Notes: generated by a model not told the origin, from the sequence alone. A stretch of 64,000 bases of DNA from an uncultured Bdellovibrionales bacterium (GCA_964597355.1 CAZQWS010000003.1:15301-79300), one strand, 5' to 3'; counted from the stretch's first letter, positions 2,930-40,798 are shown. Numbers and translations: made by a program.

Positions 2930-4309
2930 TTATTCTTCTGTTGTTATGTATTTGTCTCCTTTACTCAAAATGAACGGGCGATTGAGTTTGAGTTCGTATG
3001 TTTCTGTGCCGCTATCCCGAAGTACTGTGACTGTTATCGGCATATCATTCACACCTGGCTGCTTCTCGATTTTGAGATCATACTCATCAGCTTTCACCGT
3101 TTCCGGCAAGCGATATTCCCAGGTCACTTGTTTGGTTGTACCAAGTGGGACATGGACAAGGGCTCCAAAATATTTCTTGCCAAGTTCGCTACCAAAAACG
3201 GCCGGCTTGAAGTTTCCAGTAACTTTTTCCAACCAACTTCCTTCGGGTACATACAGCCGTGAAAAAGTCTGGTAATCACGCGTCATATAGTCTTTTTGCG
3301 TAGCGGTATGTTCGTACGTCACCACAACCTTGGCCTTCTTGGCATCACCACGAAGGTCAAGTGTATAATTAACTGAACGTCGCATCCGATAGTCGCTTTT
3401 CAAGGCATTCAGGTTGGAATCGACCAGCATGAGATAATCATCCTCCCATTTTGTATCAAGCTCCCCGCTCCAACCGGCCGTCTTCACTGTCTCCTGCAAG
3501 TCTTCGTCTTTAAAAAGTATTTGGATGTCCTTCTTATGGAGATCATCCAAAACCACCTTGAAGAGTTCGTACTTTTTCGGGATGGAGAGGTCTTTGACCT
3601 TATCGAGAATGATATTCCCTAACTCATGCATAACTTGTTTGCGATCCCCTCGACTAATCCCCTGCTTATAAAACGCCTGTTCTACCTGGTATTCAAGATC
3701 CAAAACACCCGTTTCAGCGTCATATTCCCCTGGATAACCTGGTACCACTACTGGCCCCGTAATCGAAAGAAATGAAGAAAGCACGTTGGTCGTAATACCG
3801 ATCACGCCATCAAACTCCTCTTTTCCTTCACCCATATGATAAAAATCTTCAGCCGCTTTGGCATTGACCGCCCAATCAGGCGAAACATTTGAGTCACGCA
3901 ACTTGAGCGTCCGCACGCCGAGCGTTTCAGACAATGGATACGGTGCCGGTACGGTATCCGGAATCCTCCCATCGAAGTTAATCACATCATGCGAACTAAA
4001 TTCCGTGACTTCGCCATCGTTCACTTTGAGAATACCAAAAGAACCGATGAAGCCACCACCGGGCCGGAGTTCCATATTATTTTGAAACAAGACCAGAAAT
4101 ACTTTTTCCTCGCCACGCGTATCGTAGAAATGTCCGGCTATTTTGGCGATCGTTTTGAGGTCACCCTGCATTTCTTCAGAAAAAGGCAGGATATTTGAAA
4201 TGTCCGTCAATGAATCCAGTCGGCTGGAGCGAGTTTCCCAGTAAAAATACCAAGCTCCCAAAAAGAGCGCGCTCACCAATATAAATCCGGTCCAGAATTT
4301 CCATGTCAT
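2930..4309 (-). CDS. DUF4012-like membrane-anchored protein (paralog of 60860..62956)
   Basis: N-terminal TM helix after the ATG at 4307-4309. Motif 'NNMELRPGGGFIGSFGIL' is shared with the second copy ('NNHELRPTGGFIGSYALL'). I recall this motif from DUF4012 proteins but cannot confirm it here. Confidence 0.55.
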   Translation of the reverse strand: MTWKFWTGFILVSALFLGAWYFYWETRSSRLDSLTDISNILPFSEEMQGDLKTIAKIAGHFYDTRGEEKVFLVLFQNNMELRPGGGFIGSFGILKVNDGEVTEFSSHDVINFDGRIPDTVPAPYPLSETLGVRTLKLRDSNVSPDWAVNAKAAEDFYHMGEGKEEFDGVIGITTNVLSSFLSITGPVVVPGYPGEYDAETGVLDLEYQVEQAFYKQGISRGDRKQVMHELGNIILDKVKDLSIPKKYELFKVVLDDLHKKDIQILFKDEDLQETVKTAGWSGELDTKWEDDYLMLVDSNLNALKSDYRMRRSVNYTLDLRGDAKKAKVVVTYEHTATQKDYMTRDYQTFSRLYVPEGSWLEKVTGNFKPAVFGSELGKKYFGALVHVPLGTTKQVTWEYRLPETVKADEYDLKIEKQPGVNDMPITVTVLRDSGTETYELKLNRPFILSKGDKYITTEE

Positions 4310-4380
4310 AAAAACAATCAACAGTAAACAATAAACAGGAGACCGTTATCTTCCTCACTCTAAAAACGTTGCAACCTCTC

Positions 4381-5490
4381 TTACAGTCTACCAGACAATA
4401 GCTCATTAAGACGGCGTTTGTATTCTGCTTGGGTTGGTTCAGCTGTTCTGAGTTCTTCCACGGCAGTCGGTGTACCAAGTACTGCTTCCGCCTGCGTCGC
4501 TTGGAATGCTGCCGTGGCATCGATATCAGCTTTGTAAAGCCGCGCGGTGGCTGCTTCGAGCGGCGACAAATCATCAGCGATCGGGAGATTGTCCGGCGCT
4601 GGACCCGTAGCCACGCCGTGCTGTGTGGGCATAGTCTCTGATGTTTCTTCTTCAAACACCTGAGTATCGGCCATTGTTTCCTTTTCGGTCGCGTCGGATT
4701 CTTCTGGCCAAGCCTCGATTACATCCACTGGATTGGGATCAGAAAAAGTTTCTTCATATGCGTAAGTCTCAGGCTGTTCACCTGTTGCTGGCGTTGGTTC
4801 AATCTCGAGTGGCGTATCGACTTGAGCGGCTGCTTCACGTTGCGACCAATACGGAGGGACTACTTTGGGACGAAATGTTTCAGGAGAAATGTGATATGGC
4901 TTCTGGAACGTCTGTCGAGTAGCTCGACGGGAAAAAATTCGCTCGAGCAAAGAGAGCACAAGGAAGAACGCAAGCGTCACGCCAAAGCCTGAACCGACAC
5001 TAGTTCCGATAAACCAGGTCCACGAGCTCACCCGCGTTTCAAACCATGGGCCATCAATCACGCGGAGATCAAGCTCTGATTCAAAACTGTAGAATTGACT
5101 CAGTTGATGTACAAGCTCTTTAGTGAGTAGTTCCAATACTTGCTTGGCCTCGTCTCGAGTTTCAAGCATCGCCGTGACCTCAAGCAAGCTGCTTCCAGAA
5201 ACGACTTCCGCCTCAATATGTTTGGCCCAGCCATTGCCCTCCAAAACCGTCCAATCAACCATCATTGCCCGCTCCGCTCCTTGGGCAAGGACGCGCTTTT
5301 CAAATGATTCAGTAAAGAGTACGTTTTTGGCATTTGCTGGAGCTACAATCGCTGTCTCCGTCTTTGGCAAGATAAGCAAGGAAATATGTCCTTGTGTATG
5401 ACGAAAACTCCCAAGCCAGAAAAGACCTGAAGCGATCGTAAGGGCGACGAATGTTACCCAGAAATATGTGGAGAGAAAGTTACGCAACAT
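4381..5490 (-). CDS. hypothetical bitopic membrane protein (Wzz/PCP-like topology) with acidic disordered C-terminus
   Basis: ATG at 5488-5490. TM near the N-terminus and a second TM around residue 165-185, with an exported domain between them. C-terminal region is rich in E/T/P/A. Flanked by DUF4012 and GT4 genes. Confidence 0.35.
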   Translation of the reverse strand: MLRNFLSTYFWVTFVALTIASGLFWLGSFRHTQGHISLLILPKTETAIVAPANAKNVLFTESFEKRVLAQGAERAMMVDWTVLEGNGWAKHIEAEVVSGSSLLEVTAMLETRDEAKQVLELLTKELVHQLSQFYSFESELDLRVIDGPWFETRVSSWTWFIGTSVGSGFGVTLAFFLVLSLLERIFSRRATRQTFQKPYHISPETFRPKVVPPYWSQREAAAQVDTPLEIEPTPATGEQPETYAYEETFSDPNPVDVIEAWPEESDATEKETMADTQVFEEETSETMPTQHGVATGPAPDNLPIADDLSPLEAATARLYKADIDATAAFQATQAEAVLGTPTAVEELRTAEPTQAEYKRRLNELLSGRL

Positions 5491-6658
5491 GTTTTGATTC
5501 AAAGTGATAGCGGGCTTCGTAGTCCTTCATTGTCTCACCGTAGAGCTCGACTGTTTTCGCGGCAATTGCTTCCCAGCTATAATGCTCGACCACTCGATCC
5601 TTGGCTTTGACTCCAAGTTTGACGGCCTCTTCTGGTCGATTGATATAGTAAGCCAGTTCTTGTTTCAATCCATCCACGTCTTTGGTAGGGAAGGTAACTC
5701 CTGCACCGCCACGAATCGCCTCGACATTGGCTGGAATGTCAGAAACGATAATCGGCAAGCCAAAGGCCATAGCTTCAAGCAACGCCACCGAAAGACCCTC
5801 ATCTTCAGATGGTTGAACAAACATCCCGGCCTCAGTAAAGAGTGTTGCTAGTGGCGTTCTAGTCAGTTCACCAGTAAAGATAATATTGGATCGGCCAGCA
5901 GCCATGAGCTTGAGATAGGCTTCGTATTCTTTGGTTTCTTTGGTACCCGTATGAGTTCCGACAATCACAAGTTTATAGTTGTTAGGCAGTTTGGTCGTAT
6001 CCTCAAGTTCCATAAACGCCTTGATGAGATACTGAATTCCTTTGTGCCCAACCAAACGGGAAACTGACAAGACATAGTTTCCTGGCCGCAAGCGATACTG
6101 GCTCAGGACAGTTTGATCGTGACAAGGTTCTACCTCGGCTCCATTAGGGATCGCAATTGCTTGAGAACCATAGAAAGACCGTGCATACTTTGCCAGGTGT
6201 TCGCTCACCGCGACGGTCCGCTCAGGAATATGGCAGGTAAAAAACTCCGCTGCCTTAAGACAGAGCTGAGCAAACCATCCCCACTTCTGGTGGAAATAAT
6301 CTCGACTATGAAACGTGGCGATCACCCGCGTGCGCGGGATAAAAATTCGAGGAATAAAAGATAGTATCGATGGCCCAATCGACTGAAAATGAATTACATC
6401 ATACCCCTGAAAAAGAGCGTGTAGCGTCGCGAACAAAGCATGCGAAATAGCATCCAAATGCTTGGTATGAATTGAAGGCAACGAAACAAGCTGCACTCCT
6501 TTGAAAGACTGTTTGTCTCGAGGGGTATAGTGAGGTCGAGTATACACCGTCACCTCATGTCCTAACCGGCGAAGCTCCACCGAGAGTTTCTCAACATGCT
6601 TCTCCACCCCACCAGAGAGCGCAGGGATCCCTTTTTGTCCGATGAAAGCAATTTTCAT
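5480..6658 (-). CDS. glycosyltransferase, GT4 family
   Basis: 'MKIAFIGQKGIPALSGGVEKHV...' N-terminal GT-B fold. C-terminal 'E..GLSVALLEAMAFGLPIIVSDIP' is the GT4 EX7E-type motif. Confidence 0.75.
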   Translation of the reverse strand: MKIAFIGQKGIPALSGGVEKHVEKLSVELRRLGHEVTVYTRPHYTPRDKQSFKGVQLVSLPSIHTKHLDAISHALFATLHALFQGYDVIHFQSIGPSILSFIPRIFIPRTRVIATFHSRDYFHQKWGWFAQLCLKAAEFFTCHIPERTVAVSEHLAKYARSFYGSQAIAIPNGAEVEPCHDQTVLSQYRLRPGNYVLSVSRLVGHKGIQYLIKAFMELEDTTKLPNNYKLVIVGTHTGTKETKEYEAYLKLMAAGRSNIIFTGELTRTPLATLFTEAGMFVQPSEDEGLSVALLEAMAFGLPIIVSDIPANVEAIRGGAGVTFPTKDVDGLKQELAYYINRPEEAVKLGVKAKDRVVEHYSWEAIAAKTVELYGETMKDYEARYHFESKHVA

Positions 6659-38104: not shown

Positions 38105-39061
38105 CTACATTTTGAAATAATCGCGGTACCAATCGACAAAGTTTTTAATACCAACATCAATACGGGTCGTTGGTTTCCAACCAAGTTTCCGGAGACGTCG
38201 GATGTCAGCTACGGTCGATGGCACGTCGCCCGGCTGCATTGGCATCATTTTTTTCTTGGCTATTTTGCCAACATTTTTCTCGATTACCTCAATAAACCGT
38301 GTCAGTTTTTCTTCCTTGTCACCACCAATATTCATAACTGCGCAATCCAAATTGGCATCGAGACAAGTCAGAATGCCAGAAACAATGTCGTCGACATACG
38401 TGAAGTTTCGAGTCATGTTACCGAAGTTGTAGACTTTAATCGTTTCTCCAGCAAATATGGCCCGGGTAAAATCAAACAGTGCCATATCGGGCCGTCCCCA
38501 CGGACCATACACGGTAAAGAAACGGAGTCCTGTCGTCGGTAGCCCGTGAATGTGACTATACACGTGTGCCATAAGCTCGGTGGCTTTTTTGGTCGCAGCA
38601 TACGGTGAGATCGGTGTGTCTACTGGATCCGTTTCCGAAAATGGGAGTTTCTTGTTGTTACCATACACACTCGAAGACGAAGCGTAGAGGAAATTCTGCA
38701 CCTTGTACTTCGCGGCAAGATCCAGAAGGTACGCCGTCCCCATCACATTGACATCAGCATAGAGTGCAGGGTTCTTGAGTGAATTGCGTACCCCAGCCAT
38801 CGCAGCGAGATGAACCACTTTTTCTGGACGTTCTTTTTTAAATACCTTTTCCAAGAACTTTGGGTCACGAATATCTCCCCGATAGAGCTTGAATTGTCCC
38901 TTATAGGGCTTCAAAAACTTTTTGATCCGATCTTCTTTGATCTTGGGATCGTAGTAATCATTGAAGTTGTCGATGAGGATCGGAGTATCACCACGGTCCA
39001 TTAGAGCCTTTGCAGTCGTACTACCTATGAAACCGGCACCTCCCGTAATAAGAATTTTCAT
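38105..39061 (-). CDS. NAD-dependent nucleotide-sugar epimerase (UDP-glucuronate/UDP-glucose 4-epimerase family, SDR)
   Basis: 'MKILITGGAGFIGS' Rossmann fold, 'YASSSSVYG' and 'YAATK' catalytic motifs. Confidence 0.8.
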   Translation of the reverse strand: MKILITGGAGFIGSTTAKALMDRGDTPILIDNFNDYYDPKIKEDRIKKFLKPYKGQFKLYRGDIRDPKFLEKVFKKERPEKVVHLAAMAGVRNSLKNPALYADVNVMGTAYLLDLAAKYKVQNFLYASSSSVYGNNKKLPFSETDPVDTPISPYAATKKATELMAHVYSHIHGLPTTGLRFFTVYGPWGRPDMALFDFTRAIFAGETIKVYNFGNMTRNFTYVDDIVSGILTCLDANLDCAVMNIGGDKEEKLTRFIEVIEKNVGKIAKKKMMPMQPGDVPSTVADIRRLRKLGWKPTTRIDVGIKNFVDWYRDYFKM

Positions 39062-39078
39062 GGTTATATGGCTAATAG

Positions 39079-40269
39079 TTACATGACTGATGAAATTCTA
39101 CTCCTCAAATATTGATAATACTTTCCATTTTTTGCATTTACCGTCGTGTACCGATCAAGAGCTGTTTGTCGTGCCTTGTTCCCCATTTCCGCTCGTAGGT
39201 CTTTATTTTTAATCAATAAGCCAATTTTGTCTACCCATGTTTCCGTCGTATCTGCTACAAAACCGTCCACGCCGTCGGTAATGGCATCACGGAAAGTCCC
39301 CGTAGCCGCAGCTATCGTCGGTACCTTCACTATACCCGCTTCAAAAAACTTTAACTCTGACTTGGCCTCACAGAACGGGTTACCGATCTCGAGTGGCGCC
39401 ACGTTGATATCAAGTGAGGCGATGTTTCCAAACAGTTCTTTGCGTGGGACAAAAGGAATACGCTCGATACGGTCGTTGTACTGATTCAATTCACTCTCTG
39501 TATCAAGTGGTCCCGTCAACACTAAACGCATCTCAGGATAGGTTTCGAAAAGTTTCACCAAAGCCCCCGTAATCGTCGCAAAGTCTCTGTCATGACTCGG
39601 CGTCCCACTCAAATAGCCAATCCGAACAATTTGCTGATTGCTGATTGCTGATTGCTGATTGTGTAAAGCTTGCTCGGCCCACGCCACATCCTGTTTTGAT
39701 AGTTTGTTAGGTACTACAAACACCTGTTTCCCCTTGGCTTGAATTTTCTCCGCCAAGAAATTTGTGGTTGTGGTCGCTACCTCAACATATGGATCCATCA
39801 AAACTTCCCCACCAACGCCGTATTCATAGAGCTTCCGCTCAAGTACATTCATCTTTTGCCAATAGTCCATGTGGACCAAGAAAGCAGGATCATACACCAA
39901 GTCATCCGTCTCAAAGATAATGGTTTTTTTCAACGCTTTGGCGCGTTCGATAAACTGAGCCAGTTTGGGTGTTAAAAGAGTACGGTGAAGAATAAATATT
40001 TGAAACTGTTCAACAGCCAGAAGAAGTTTGGGATGATCTTGGTATGTAGCCGCAGCAGGAAGTCCATGAAAAGAGAGCTCCTCGGCCACATGTTTGGTAC
40101 GATACCGAGCACTATCGGCCATGCCTCCAGATATAAGCAGGATCTGACCAGTACCAATCGATTGGAAGAGTGCCGTGAAAATAGTCCATGCCCGACGCCC
40201 ACCACGAATAAGACCATCTTGTCGGATGATCGCCCAAACCTTACCGAGTTTTATGAACCACGTTTTCAT
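39079..40269 (-). CDS. glycosyltransferase (GT4-like C-terminal domain) containing an in-frame heptanucleotide tandem repeat
   Basis: C-terminal 'EAKSELKFFEAGIVKVPTIAAATGTFRDAITDGVDGFVAD...LRAEMGNKARQ' is GT4-like. Coding strand carries (CAATCAG)x4 at 39634-39661, encoding NQQSAISNQQ. Confidence 0.6.
   Translation of the reverse strand: MKTWFIKLGKVWAIIRQDGLIRGGRRAWTIFTALFQSIGTGQILLISGGMADSARYRTKHVAEELSFHGLPAAATYQDHPKLLLAVEQFQIFILHRTLLTPKLAQFIERAKALKKTIIFETDDLVYDPAFLVHMDYWQKMNVLERKLYEYGVGGEVLMDPYVEVATTTTNFLAEKIQAKGKQVFVVPNKLSKQDVAWAEQALHNQQSAISNQQIVRIGYLSGTPSHDRDFATITGALVKLFETYPEMRLVLTGPLDTESELNQYNDRIERIPFVPRKELFGNIASLDINVAPLEIGNPFCEAKSELKFFEAGIVKVPTIAAATGTFRDAITDGVDGFVADTTETWVDKIGLLIKNKDLRAEMGNKARQTALDRYTTVNAKNGKYYQYLRSRISSVM
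39634..39661 (-). repeat. 4 x 7-nt perfect tandem repeat (CAATCAG on coding strand; ctgattg on plus)
   Basis: Read directly: ttg ctgattg ctgattg ctgattg ctgattg tgtaaag. The 7-nt unit is not a multiple of 3, so copy-number change would frameshift the ORF. Confidence 0.9.
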
Positions 40270-40294: not shown

Positions 40295-40798
40295 CTACAG
40301 CATTTCTTCCGTTTGGACAATAAGGTTTTTGGCATTTTCAAACGTGGCTCTGGCCACTGCTTCTTCGTAAGGAAGCCAAACAAAGTCTGTATGTTCATGA
40401 GAAAGGCGTACCGTCTGGCTCAGATTAACTTCGACTGGATAAAAGTGCACTTCCTTGAAAATCCACAGTCCTCGGTCAATTTCTTTGCGCTTCACAGCTT
40501 CATTTCCCTTGGCAATATAAAAGTAACGGATACTCATACGCCTTTCAAGAATCTGGAGATTGGTAAGACCCGTTTCTTCTTCTGTCTCGCGCCGAAGGGT
40601 CATCATTTCTGTTTCACCTTCTTCGACATGCCCCTTGGCAAAGTCAAAGTGCCCACTCGGATACTGGAGAAGTAGGTACTCTCGCTTCCCAGGAGCCACT
40701 TCACGAAACACAACTGCTCCAACCGAAATTTCCCATGCAGTAGGAAGACCGCAGAGAGTAAGGAGACGATAAAGAATTCGGTTTACTGGGAGTTGCAT
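40295..40798 (-). CDS. NUDIX hydrolase
   Basis: Nudix box 'GHVEEGETEMMTLRRETEEETGL' (GX5EX7REUXEEXGU). Confidence 0.7.
   Translation of the reverse strand: MQLPVNRILYRLLTLCGLPTAWEISVGAVVFREVAPGKREYLLLQYPSGHFDFAKGHVEEGETEMMTLRRETEEETGLTNLQILERRMSIRYFYIAKGNEAVKRKEIDRGLWIFKEVHFYPVEVNLSQTVRLSHEHTDFVWLPYEEAVARATFENAKNLIVQTEEML

Follow-up and report, generated by a model that had tools for sequence, protein, structure and literature searches.

A heptanucleotide repeat in the inter-domain linker of a Moranbacteria glycosyltransferase gene: a candidate low-rate phase-variation locus

A stretch of 64,000 nucleotides (nt) from an uncultured bacterium (GCA_964597355.1, CAZQWS010000003.1:15301-79300; the whole of it is called the window in the following) contains a perfect tandem repeat with a unit of 7 nt inside the open reading frame (ORF) of a predicted GT4-type glycosyltransferase, at the place where the two domains of the enzyme are joined. 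Tracts of the same period, built from other units, recur at this place in orthologous genes of Moranbacteria. We consider it somewhat probable that the tract is a slippage-prone simple sequence repeat (SSR) which acts as a low-rate translational phase-variation (contingency) locus, for which it is at present a candidate by its sequence and by that of its relatives.

Tandem Repeats Finder (TRF) describes the tract with a period of 7, 4.4 copies, 100% matches, and a score of 62, which makes it the top-scoring tandem array of the 64-kb window (coordinates of all features in Table 1). On the plus strand of the raw sequence it reads four times TTGCTGA followed by TTG, i.e., (TTGCTGA)x4.4, and on the coding (minus) strand (AATCAGC)x4 with a partial unit. 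The coding-strand codons CAC AAT CAG CAA TCA GCA ATC AGC AAT CAG CAA are translated into H-NQQSAISNQQ, i.e., residues 203-213 of a product of 396 amino acids (aa). The 28-nt pattern had no match in 100 dinucleotide-preserving shuffles, and a probe of two units with up to 2 mismatches allowed matched nothing other than the tract itself. The repeat thus is an uninterrupted tandem array within an ORF, and the length of its unit is no multiple of 3, as is demanded of SSR phase-variation loci. A preliminary description of the window had placed a perfect four-copy 7-nt repeat encoding NQQSAISNQQ at 39634-39661, which TRF and translation confirm apart from the choice of register. Since eight further assemblies, made from different samples, hold the identical tract, it is not an assembly artefact.

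Concerning the host gene, the ORF is, by its Pfam matches and its modelled structure, a GT4-type glycosyltransferase. Its product passes the Pfam gathering scores of Glycos_transf_1 (PF00534; 39.7 bits versus a cut-off of 26.4), Glyco_trans_1_2 (PF13524), and Glyco_trans_1_4 (PF13692) over residues 239-377. The N-terminal half has no match to Pfam Glyco_transf_4, and in NCBIfam every match to the protein is far under the cut-off, with no equivalog near its threshold. The AlphaFold2 model (predicted local distance difference test, pLDDT, 85; predicted template modelling score, pTM, 0.85) exhibits the GT-B fold with two Rossmann domains, and its best Foldseek matches in the PDB are TreT, HepE, MshA, PimA, and BshA (probability 1.0, TM 0.57-0.64, 12-16% identity). 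The spacing of the invariant residues E301, E305, and E310 fits no simple EX7E motif, such that no claim is made for this catalytic motif. Residues 1-33 precede the first Rossmann domain and form two helices (MKTWFIKLGKVWAIIRQDGLIRGGRRAW...) that are conserved in the family and lie outside the Pfam models of the GT4 N-domain; this N-terminal pair may have a role in membrane association.

Homologues of the glycosyltransferase numbered 1491 at E <= 0.001. The best 120 of them exhibit 57-100% identity and lengths of 364-423 aa (nearly all 389-423 aa), and such names as they carry point with few exceptions to Moranbacteria/Moraniibacteriota or Patescibacteria. By these relatives, the window belongs to a bacterium of the class Moranbacteria in the Candidate Phyla Radiation (CPR), and across this class the family is kept at 45-77% identity. 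Many GTDB-representative metagenome-assembled genomes (MAGs; L004-L083, L numbers being used here for orthologous loci) that possess a gene of the Moranbacteria type are titled "uncultured Bdellovibrionales bacterium"; this looks like a taxonomy label of the submitter, at odds with the relatives of the gene.

The tract codes for the end of the helix 192-206 and for the loop 207-214 which links the two Rossmann domains, the following strand (215-219) being the first of the C-terminal domain (DSSP on the model). In the alignments, the linker between the anchors N188 and H226 comprises 34-74 residues without conserved sequence, and it is the only strongly indel-rich segment of the protein. As the linker is hypervariable and of such variable length, the protein of the in-frame (ON) state should tolerate the insert, and a conserved structural peptide at the tract is excluded by the orthologues, which exhibit no conserved sequence there.

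When the number of units is changed in silico, 2, 3, 5, or 6 units lead to products of 217-228 aa that end at a TGA 4-15 codons past the tract, and 1, 4, or 7 units leave the gene in frame. The predicted products of the frameshifted (OFF) state consist of the N-terminal part and a short out-of-frame tail and lose the whole C-terminal domain with its invariant motifs YLSGTPSH and FCE[AS]KSELKFFEAG, such that they are presumably inactive. In these respects the preliminary description holds: the gene that it called GT4-like is recognised by Pfam gathering scores and by a GT-B model, the frameshift and truncation that it expected from the gain or loss of one unit are borne out in silico, and the tract is situated in an indel-rich inter-domain loop (model and alignments), tolerance to insertion having been one of the points it proposed for a check. 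The conserved peptide in orthologues that it had named as a sign of a structural role of the 28-nt segment is not found, the segment being part of the hypervariable linker.

In GTDB, the matches of the gene number at least 552. The comparison with orthologues covered 80 loci of species-representative genomes and a further 80 of metagenomic origin (the best 80 by tblastn score), the linker DNA of which was taken out via the protein alignment; repeats with periods of 2-12 were counted as perfect from at least 18 nt and at least 2.5 copies onwards. Over the 154 distinct orthologue genes, the linkers, 18.5 kb in all, contain 18 perfect repeats of period 7; the flanks contain 12 in 726 kb, and the 162 kb of gene outside the linker contain none. 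Relative to the flanks, the linker is enriched about 59-fold. No linker of these genes has a perfect repeat of another period in the range of 2-12. With mismatches allowed, 29 of 152 linkers hold a period-7 tract of 27-38 nt (3.9-5.4 copies), such that heptamer tracts, the presence of which in orthologues the preliminary description had proposed to compare, do recur at the linker, with other units. These 29 tracts comprise at least 20 different units, and the genes that bear them fall into at least 16 of 64 clusters at 70% identity; four fifths of the orthologues are without any tract. Besides the longer perfect arrays (Table 1), many more orthologue loci contain 2.6-2.9 perfect heptamer copies. 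The peptides of relatives at the linker had hinted at such other 7-nt units, and the hint was confirmed in the DNA. When the linkers were matched against themselves at period 7, 27 out of 147 had 16 or more matches out of 21; other periods (4-12) never exceeded 17, and four control gene regions never exceeded 15 of 21. The histogram of period-7 self-matches is bimodal with a trough at 14-16, i.e., tracts are either well kept or absent.

The units are subject to turnover. Between L007 (AATCAAG) and L009 ((AATCACG)x4.4), which share 83% protein identity, the same position of the unit differs in every copy. L166 possesses a perfect (AATCATC)x4, and L167, at 80% nucleotide identity, holds a point-mutated version of equal length. 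In L016, units of AATCAAC and AATCAGC alternate, which suggests the duplication of two units at a time. The closest sister lineages of the window species (L174, L176; 72-77% identity, same synteny) are without a tract; plain contractions from four units to one were rejected as the origin of tract-less linkers, the lengths of the linkers not being offset by a clean 7 aa. Because the units differ by lineage and change in concert, replication slippage has been active at the linker repeatedly, and the presence of repeats at the same site in orthologues, together with unit turnover and concerted change, is the pattern that characterises an active repeat. The comparison shows the linker as a long-standing, period-7-specific slippage site across Moranbacteria.

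In six lineages, tracts of 27-32 nt are without any mismatch, though the identity of third codon positions between tract-bearing lineages is 36-40%. Because these positions are near saturation, mismatch-free tracts must be recent or continually homogenised. Steps of homogenisation or birth by single units would pass through frameshifted alleles, and to keep the tracts perfect would need either tolerated OFF states or slippage fast enough for a standing OFF subpopulation; if perfect tracts are kept by single-unit steps, OFF cells would therefore be expected in populations. Moreover, that the period is exclusively a frame-breaking one runs counter to the usual effect of purifying selection on coding DNA, since frame-neutral repeats would be harmless in the linker.

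If the tract is a contingency locus, slips by a single unit would yield OFF cells and may also revert them, and the switching of the GT4 enzyme would alter the glycoconjugate made with the adjacent sugar epimerase/dehydratase. The rate of switching would probably be low and of the "mutable" rather than the "hypermutable" class, given the shortness of the tract and its constancy in every assembly, and the ON state with four units would be the dominant state in natural populations.

Several observations weigh against such a role. Nine assemblies of the window species, from different samples, were compared at consensus level (the window, two from Logan, four from ENA, and two from JGI); they represent four nucleotide alleles up to 25 of 1191 nt (2.1%) apart, and all of them contain exactly four perfect units. 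Samples in which the species is present include SRR8893623, SRR11524805, ERZ28614686, and JGI 3300007448, and L003 and L169-L173 are its loci from ENA and JGI. The difference in repeat number between strains that would mark phase variation thus is absent among these nine consensus sequences. In classical contingency loci, repeat number differs between almost any two strains, and by this standard the tract is stable at consensus level. Length variants of plus or minus 7 aa are absent from ten clusters of tract-bearing orthologues at 90% identity, and an ON allele with 7 units was not seen among the orthologues, the length of the tracts being nearly uniform at about 4-5 units. A frameshift at the tract was found in 0 of the 154 distinct orthologue genes, which is weak evidence as the ranking by tblastn score favours intact genes; each of the 163 loci retrieved corresponds to one tblastn match that stays in frame, and the restriction to the best 80 would drop split genes. 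A search of 5.8 billion proteins with the N-terminal 202 aa yielded 18 short proteins and no slippage product, with few and short targets returned and an uncertain sensitivity. OFF alleles thus were not met with in natural genomes, as far as orthologues and short proteins were covered by searches biased to intact genes. A scan of JGI metagenomes with both flanks and a gap of 3-7 units gave 0 matches and is uninformative, the scanned collection evidently being without the species. Furthermore, the glycosyltransferase gene is conserved, single-copy, and syntenic, unlike a strain-variable surface-glycan gene, and concerted evolution could in principle proceed via rare, deleterious OFF intermediates, such that it is no proof of an adaptive switch. 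The phase-variation switch of the preliminary description consequently stands as far as anatomy, truncation, and the recurrence of heptamers in orthologues are concerned, but copy-number variation is absent at consensus level.

Three short or split orthologues were considered as OFF products and rejected. The orthologue L014, on the large MAG contig CAVZUR010000004.1, is called as a protein of 199 aa (P0122); it exhibits two compensating frameshifts by G-runs in the linker region (3540-3660) and has no heptamer tract, and the double frameshift is most likely a sequencing error, as the naming of the contig points to a long-read assembly. P0128 (L164) stems from a contig that diverges where a palindromic repeat of about 23 nt is situated: the linkers of L054 and L103 contain, instead of a heptamer tract, two copies of the palindrome CCAAGAGCT[A/T]AGCTCTTGG about 23 nt apart, and the related short JGI contig L164 (1480-1667) diverges into unrelated sequence exactly at that palindrome, which could be an assembly break or a rearrangement. 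P0126 (L165, 631-1825, from the GW2011 Moranbacteria contig LCNJ01000021.1) is split into ORFs of 268 and 108 aa; the deletion and the frameshift responsible lie downstream of the linker, in which degenerate TTATCAR heptamers are still present. This could reflect a gene that some lineages can do without, or an error of the assembly.

The alternative to be taken most seriously, although on the whole we regard it as improbable rather than probable, is a non-adaptive microsatellite in an insertion-tolerant mutational hot spot, where a heptamer tract formed early or forms time and again, slippage homogenises the units and thereby preserves it, deleterious frameshifts are purged, and no regulatory role is involved. 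Four units would then be the smallest in-frame expansion that passes selection, and a reading-frame filter of this kind would give just the uniform 4-5 units that are observed. The constant copy number in the 9 assemblies and in related clusters and the lack of any OFF allele agree with this explanation, as does the conserved, syntenic gene, which suggests steady purifying selection, and "mutable" SSRs of intermediate length can stem from genome composition without selection for mutability (PMC4235727). However, neutral slippage in an indel-tolerant coding loop should favour triplet periods, whereas only period 7 is seen, and in the linker only. Perfect tracts in many deep lineages and the bimodal distribution would furthermore need frequent homogenisation or rebirth via frameshifted alleles, and with strongly deleterious frameshifts one would expect these events at a much lower frequency than point mutations. 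The disrupted orthologue L165 also speaks against this explanation, in that the gene apparently can be lost.

Quite improbable, in our estimation, is an array of binding sites in DNA or mRNA, or a structured element, e.g., for a regulator of the downstream epimerase gene, with the period being kept for binding. It would explain why period 7 is kept while the protein sequence is not, and heptamers of the AAATTCR family are situated directly upstream of two start codons in L060. Some units also recur in very distant lineages (window/L016, L166/L168, L060/L078, L055/L135), the tract identity of such pairs being 93-97% as opposed to 36-40% at third positions. As proof of selection at the nucleotide level, however, this sharing was rejected as not decisive: about 6 shared pairs among 406 are near chance, because a tract of perfect units has no more than 7 independent positions and few heptamers that are stop-free and A-rich are available. 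Otherwise the units are wholly different between lineages (AATCAGC, GAATCAC, ATTCAAA, CAAGAAA, ATGCTCC, GCTACAA, and others) without a common motif, four fifths of the orthologues lack a tract, and a search for an Rfam family or a promoter-like or terminator-like site at the tract had no match, such that an RNA family, promoter, or terminator was rejected. Finally, a chance repeat or an assembly artefact without biological meaning, considered only as the tract is short (31 nt), has practically no probability left and is refuted by the 100 shuffles, by the same tract in nine independent assemblies from different assemblers and samples, and by homologous tracts in dozens of orthologues.

It is a new finding, and unusual for coding DNA, that a period-7 repeat able to shift the frame recurs in a single loop of a conserved enzyme, as it does in about one fifth of the lineages, and that frame-neutral repeats never occur there. 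The further-reaching proposal, that the tract is a selected contingency element long kept in the inter-domain loop of a conserved envelope enzyme and that phase variation of surface glycoconjugates is a conserved trait across the class Moranbacteria, is put forward tentatively, and we would sooner expect it to fail than to hold. If it were true, ultra-small and probably host-attached CPR bacteria might vary their attachment to the host or their susceptibility to phages. To our knowledge, SSR phase variation is known almost entirely from culturable host-adapted pathogens, and full-text searches of the literature yielded no publication that links it to CPR/Patescibacteria. If the tract does switch, it would be the first SSR phase-variation locus described in the CPR, and it would offer a sequence-defined handle on surface variation in uncultivated bacteria with reduced genomes.

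Heptamers were also observed upstream of start codons. In the window, an imperfect (TTGTTTA)x~3.7 with 78% matches (4312-4337, minus strand) immediately precedes the ATG of a gene of the DUF4012 family (2930-4321, likewise on the minus strand). A GT4 gene (5480-6658) is present in that region, too, and the heptamers might be an SSR placed just ahead of the start codon. In the Moranbacteria MAG L060, repeats of AAATTCA and AAATTCG (4360-4378 and 5499-5527) precede by 4-10 nt the start codons of an SDR epimerase and of a downstream unannotated ORF of 258 aa, which is hydrophobic and resembles a membrane protein. These heptamers sit in AT-rich spacers rich in AAATTTCGAATTT-like palindromes, and their unit family is that of the linker tracts inside the ORFs of L055, L135, and L033. 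If the trait proposed for the class is real, such heptamers upstream of starts would point to a larger, heptamer-based repertoire of phase-variable genes.

Concerning the gene neighbourhood (Table 1), the NUDIX gene keeps its synteny in the closest relatives L001-L003, L176, and L177. A homologue of the SDR gene follows directly downstream of the glycosyltransferase gene in 65 of 125 orthologous loci and farther downstream in 17 more. Farther out, the window contains a small ORF, a GT4 gene, a gene for a 216-aa protein without assigned function, and another GT4 gene. Altogether, three GT4 genes, the SDR gene, and the NUDIX gene are situated among genes of the cell wall and envelope (PBP1A, PBP2, MreB, MreC, and a MacB-type ABC transporter with HlyD). 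A polysaccharide locus next to a UDP-sugar epimerase, as had been suggested in advance, is thereby supported in part: an SDR gene is indeed only 17 nt away, but neither a flippase nor a polymerase was seen in the neighbourhood.

Table 1. Positions of the repeat, its host gene, and adjacent genes in the window, and perfect heptamer arrays in the linker of orthologous loci
Feature	Position	Strand	Repeat unit	Copies	Evidence and remarks
NAD-dependent sugar epimerase/dehydratase (SDR)	38105..39061	-			Pfam Epimerase/GDP_Man_Dehyd; 17 nt downstream of the glycosyltransferase gene
GT4-type (GT-B fold) glycosyltransferase gene, 396 aa	39079..40269	-			Pfam, homologues, AlphaFold2 model
C-terminal Rossmann domain, residues 215-396	39082..39627	-			Pfam (residues 239-377), invariant columns
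TGA reached with 2 or 5 units	39590..39592	-			In silico; products of 221 or 228 aa
TGA reached with 3 or 6 units	39609..39611	-			In silico; products of 217 or 224 aa
Inter-domain linker, helix 192-206 and loop 207-214	39628..39696	-			DSSP on the model, alignments
Heptanucleotide SSR	39631..39661	-			TRF, raw sequence, shuffles, identity in 9 assemblies; encodes residues ~203-213
N-terminal part, residues 1-191 (N-terminal helices and first Rossmann-like domain)	39697..40269	-			Model, coordinates
NUDIX hydrolase	40295..40798	-			Pfam NUDIX; directly upstream of the glycosyltransferase gene
Orthologue L009			GAATCAC	4.4	
Orthologue L055			ATTCAAA	4.6	
Orthologue L078			CAAGAAA	4.6	
Orthologue L166			AATCATC	4.1	
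Orthologue L065			ATGCTCC	3.9	
Orthologue L007			AAGAATC	3.7	
Orthologue L113			GCTACAA	3.6	
Orthologue L049			AACAAAC	3.4	

In its predicted structure, the glycosyltransferase resembles the GT4 retaining enzymes TreT, HepE, MshA, PimA, and BshA, with which it shares the GT-B fold and the Glycos_transf_1 C-terminal domain; it differs from them by an identity of only 12-16%, by the lack of a Pfam GT4 N-domain, and by the additional pair of N-terminal helices.

The repeat itself is similar to those of the contingency loci in glycosyltransferase genes for the lipopolysaccharide (LPS) of Haemophilus influenzae, in that a non-triplet SSR lies within a glycan gene and would be picked up by in-silico screens, which ask for at least 3 units of a 7-mer, a place inside an ORF, and a frameshift as the consequence (PMC2651432). 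The SSRs of H. influenzae are tetranucleotides and in some cases penta-, hepta-, or octanucleotides, and as a rule its tracts are long, in many cases with more than 10 units, variable among strains, and commonly situated near the 5' end of the gene. The tract of the window, in contrast, comprises only 4 units and is invariant. Screens for SSRs accept at least 3 copies for 7-mers, and the heptamer tracts of H. influenzae contain 13-38 copies (PMC2651432). In the "mutable" class of Bayliss and co-workers, SSRs of intermediate length are expected to change at 1e-7 to 1e-5 per division, and switching back and forth may seldom occur and become visible only under selection, whereas at least 3 copies of a pentamer are already classed as hypermutable (PMC4235727). 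Four heptamer units are above the published threshold of at least 3 (PMC2651432) and by analogy would range from "mutable" to "hypermutable" (PMC4235727), at the short, low-rate end; the "mutable" class most plausibly fits the tract, as judged by this analogy. Unlike SSRs of that class which arise without selection for mutability, the tract recurs throughout the family with specific period and position, which argues for more than an accident of composition.

The closest precedent is pglE of Neisseria, which encodes a galactosyltransferase of protein glycosylation and the phase variation of which is controlled by a heptanucleotide repeat (PMC7157529). Both in N. meningitidis/gonorrhoeae pglE and in the Moranbacteria gene, a 7-nt repeat is situated in the coding sequence of a glycosyltransferase and a change by one unit shifts the frame, the likeness being one of repeat and gene type. 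In Neisseria, both isolates and carriers have provided documentation that pglE switches, and the tract varies by strain, whereas in the window species, a non-pathogenic and uncultivated member of the Moranbacteria, it is constant at four units in the nine assemblies, with no OFF allele met with, and, unlike in pglE, lies in the middle of the gene in an inter-domain loop. With these differences, the tract may be regarded, by analogy, as a candidate counterpart of Neisseria pglE in Moranbacteria.

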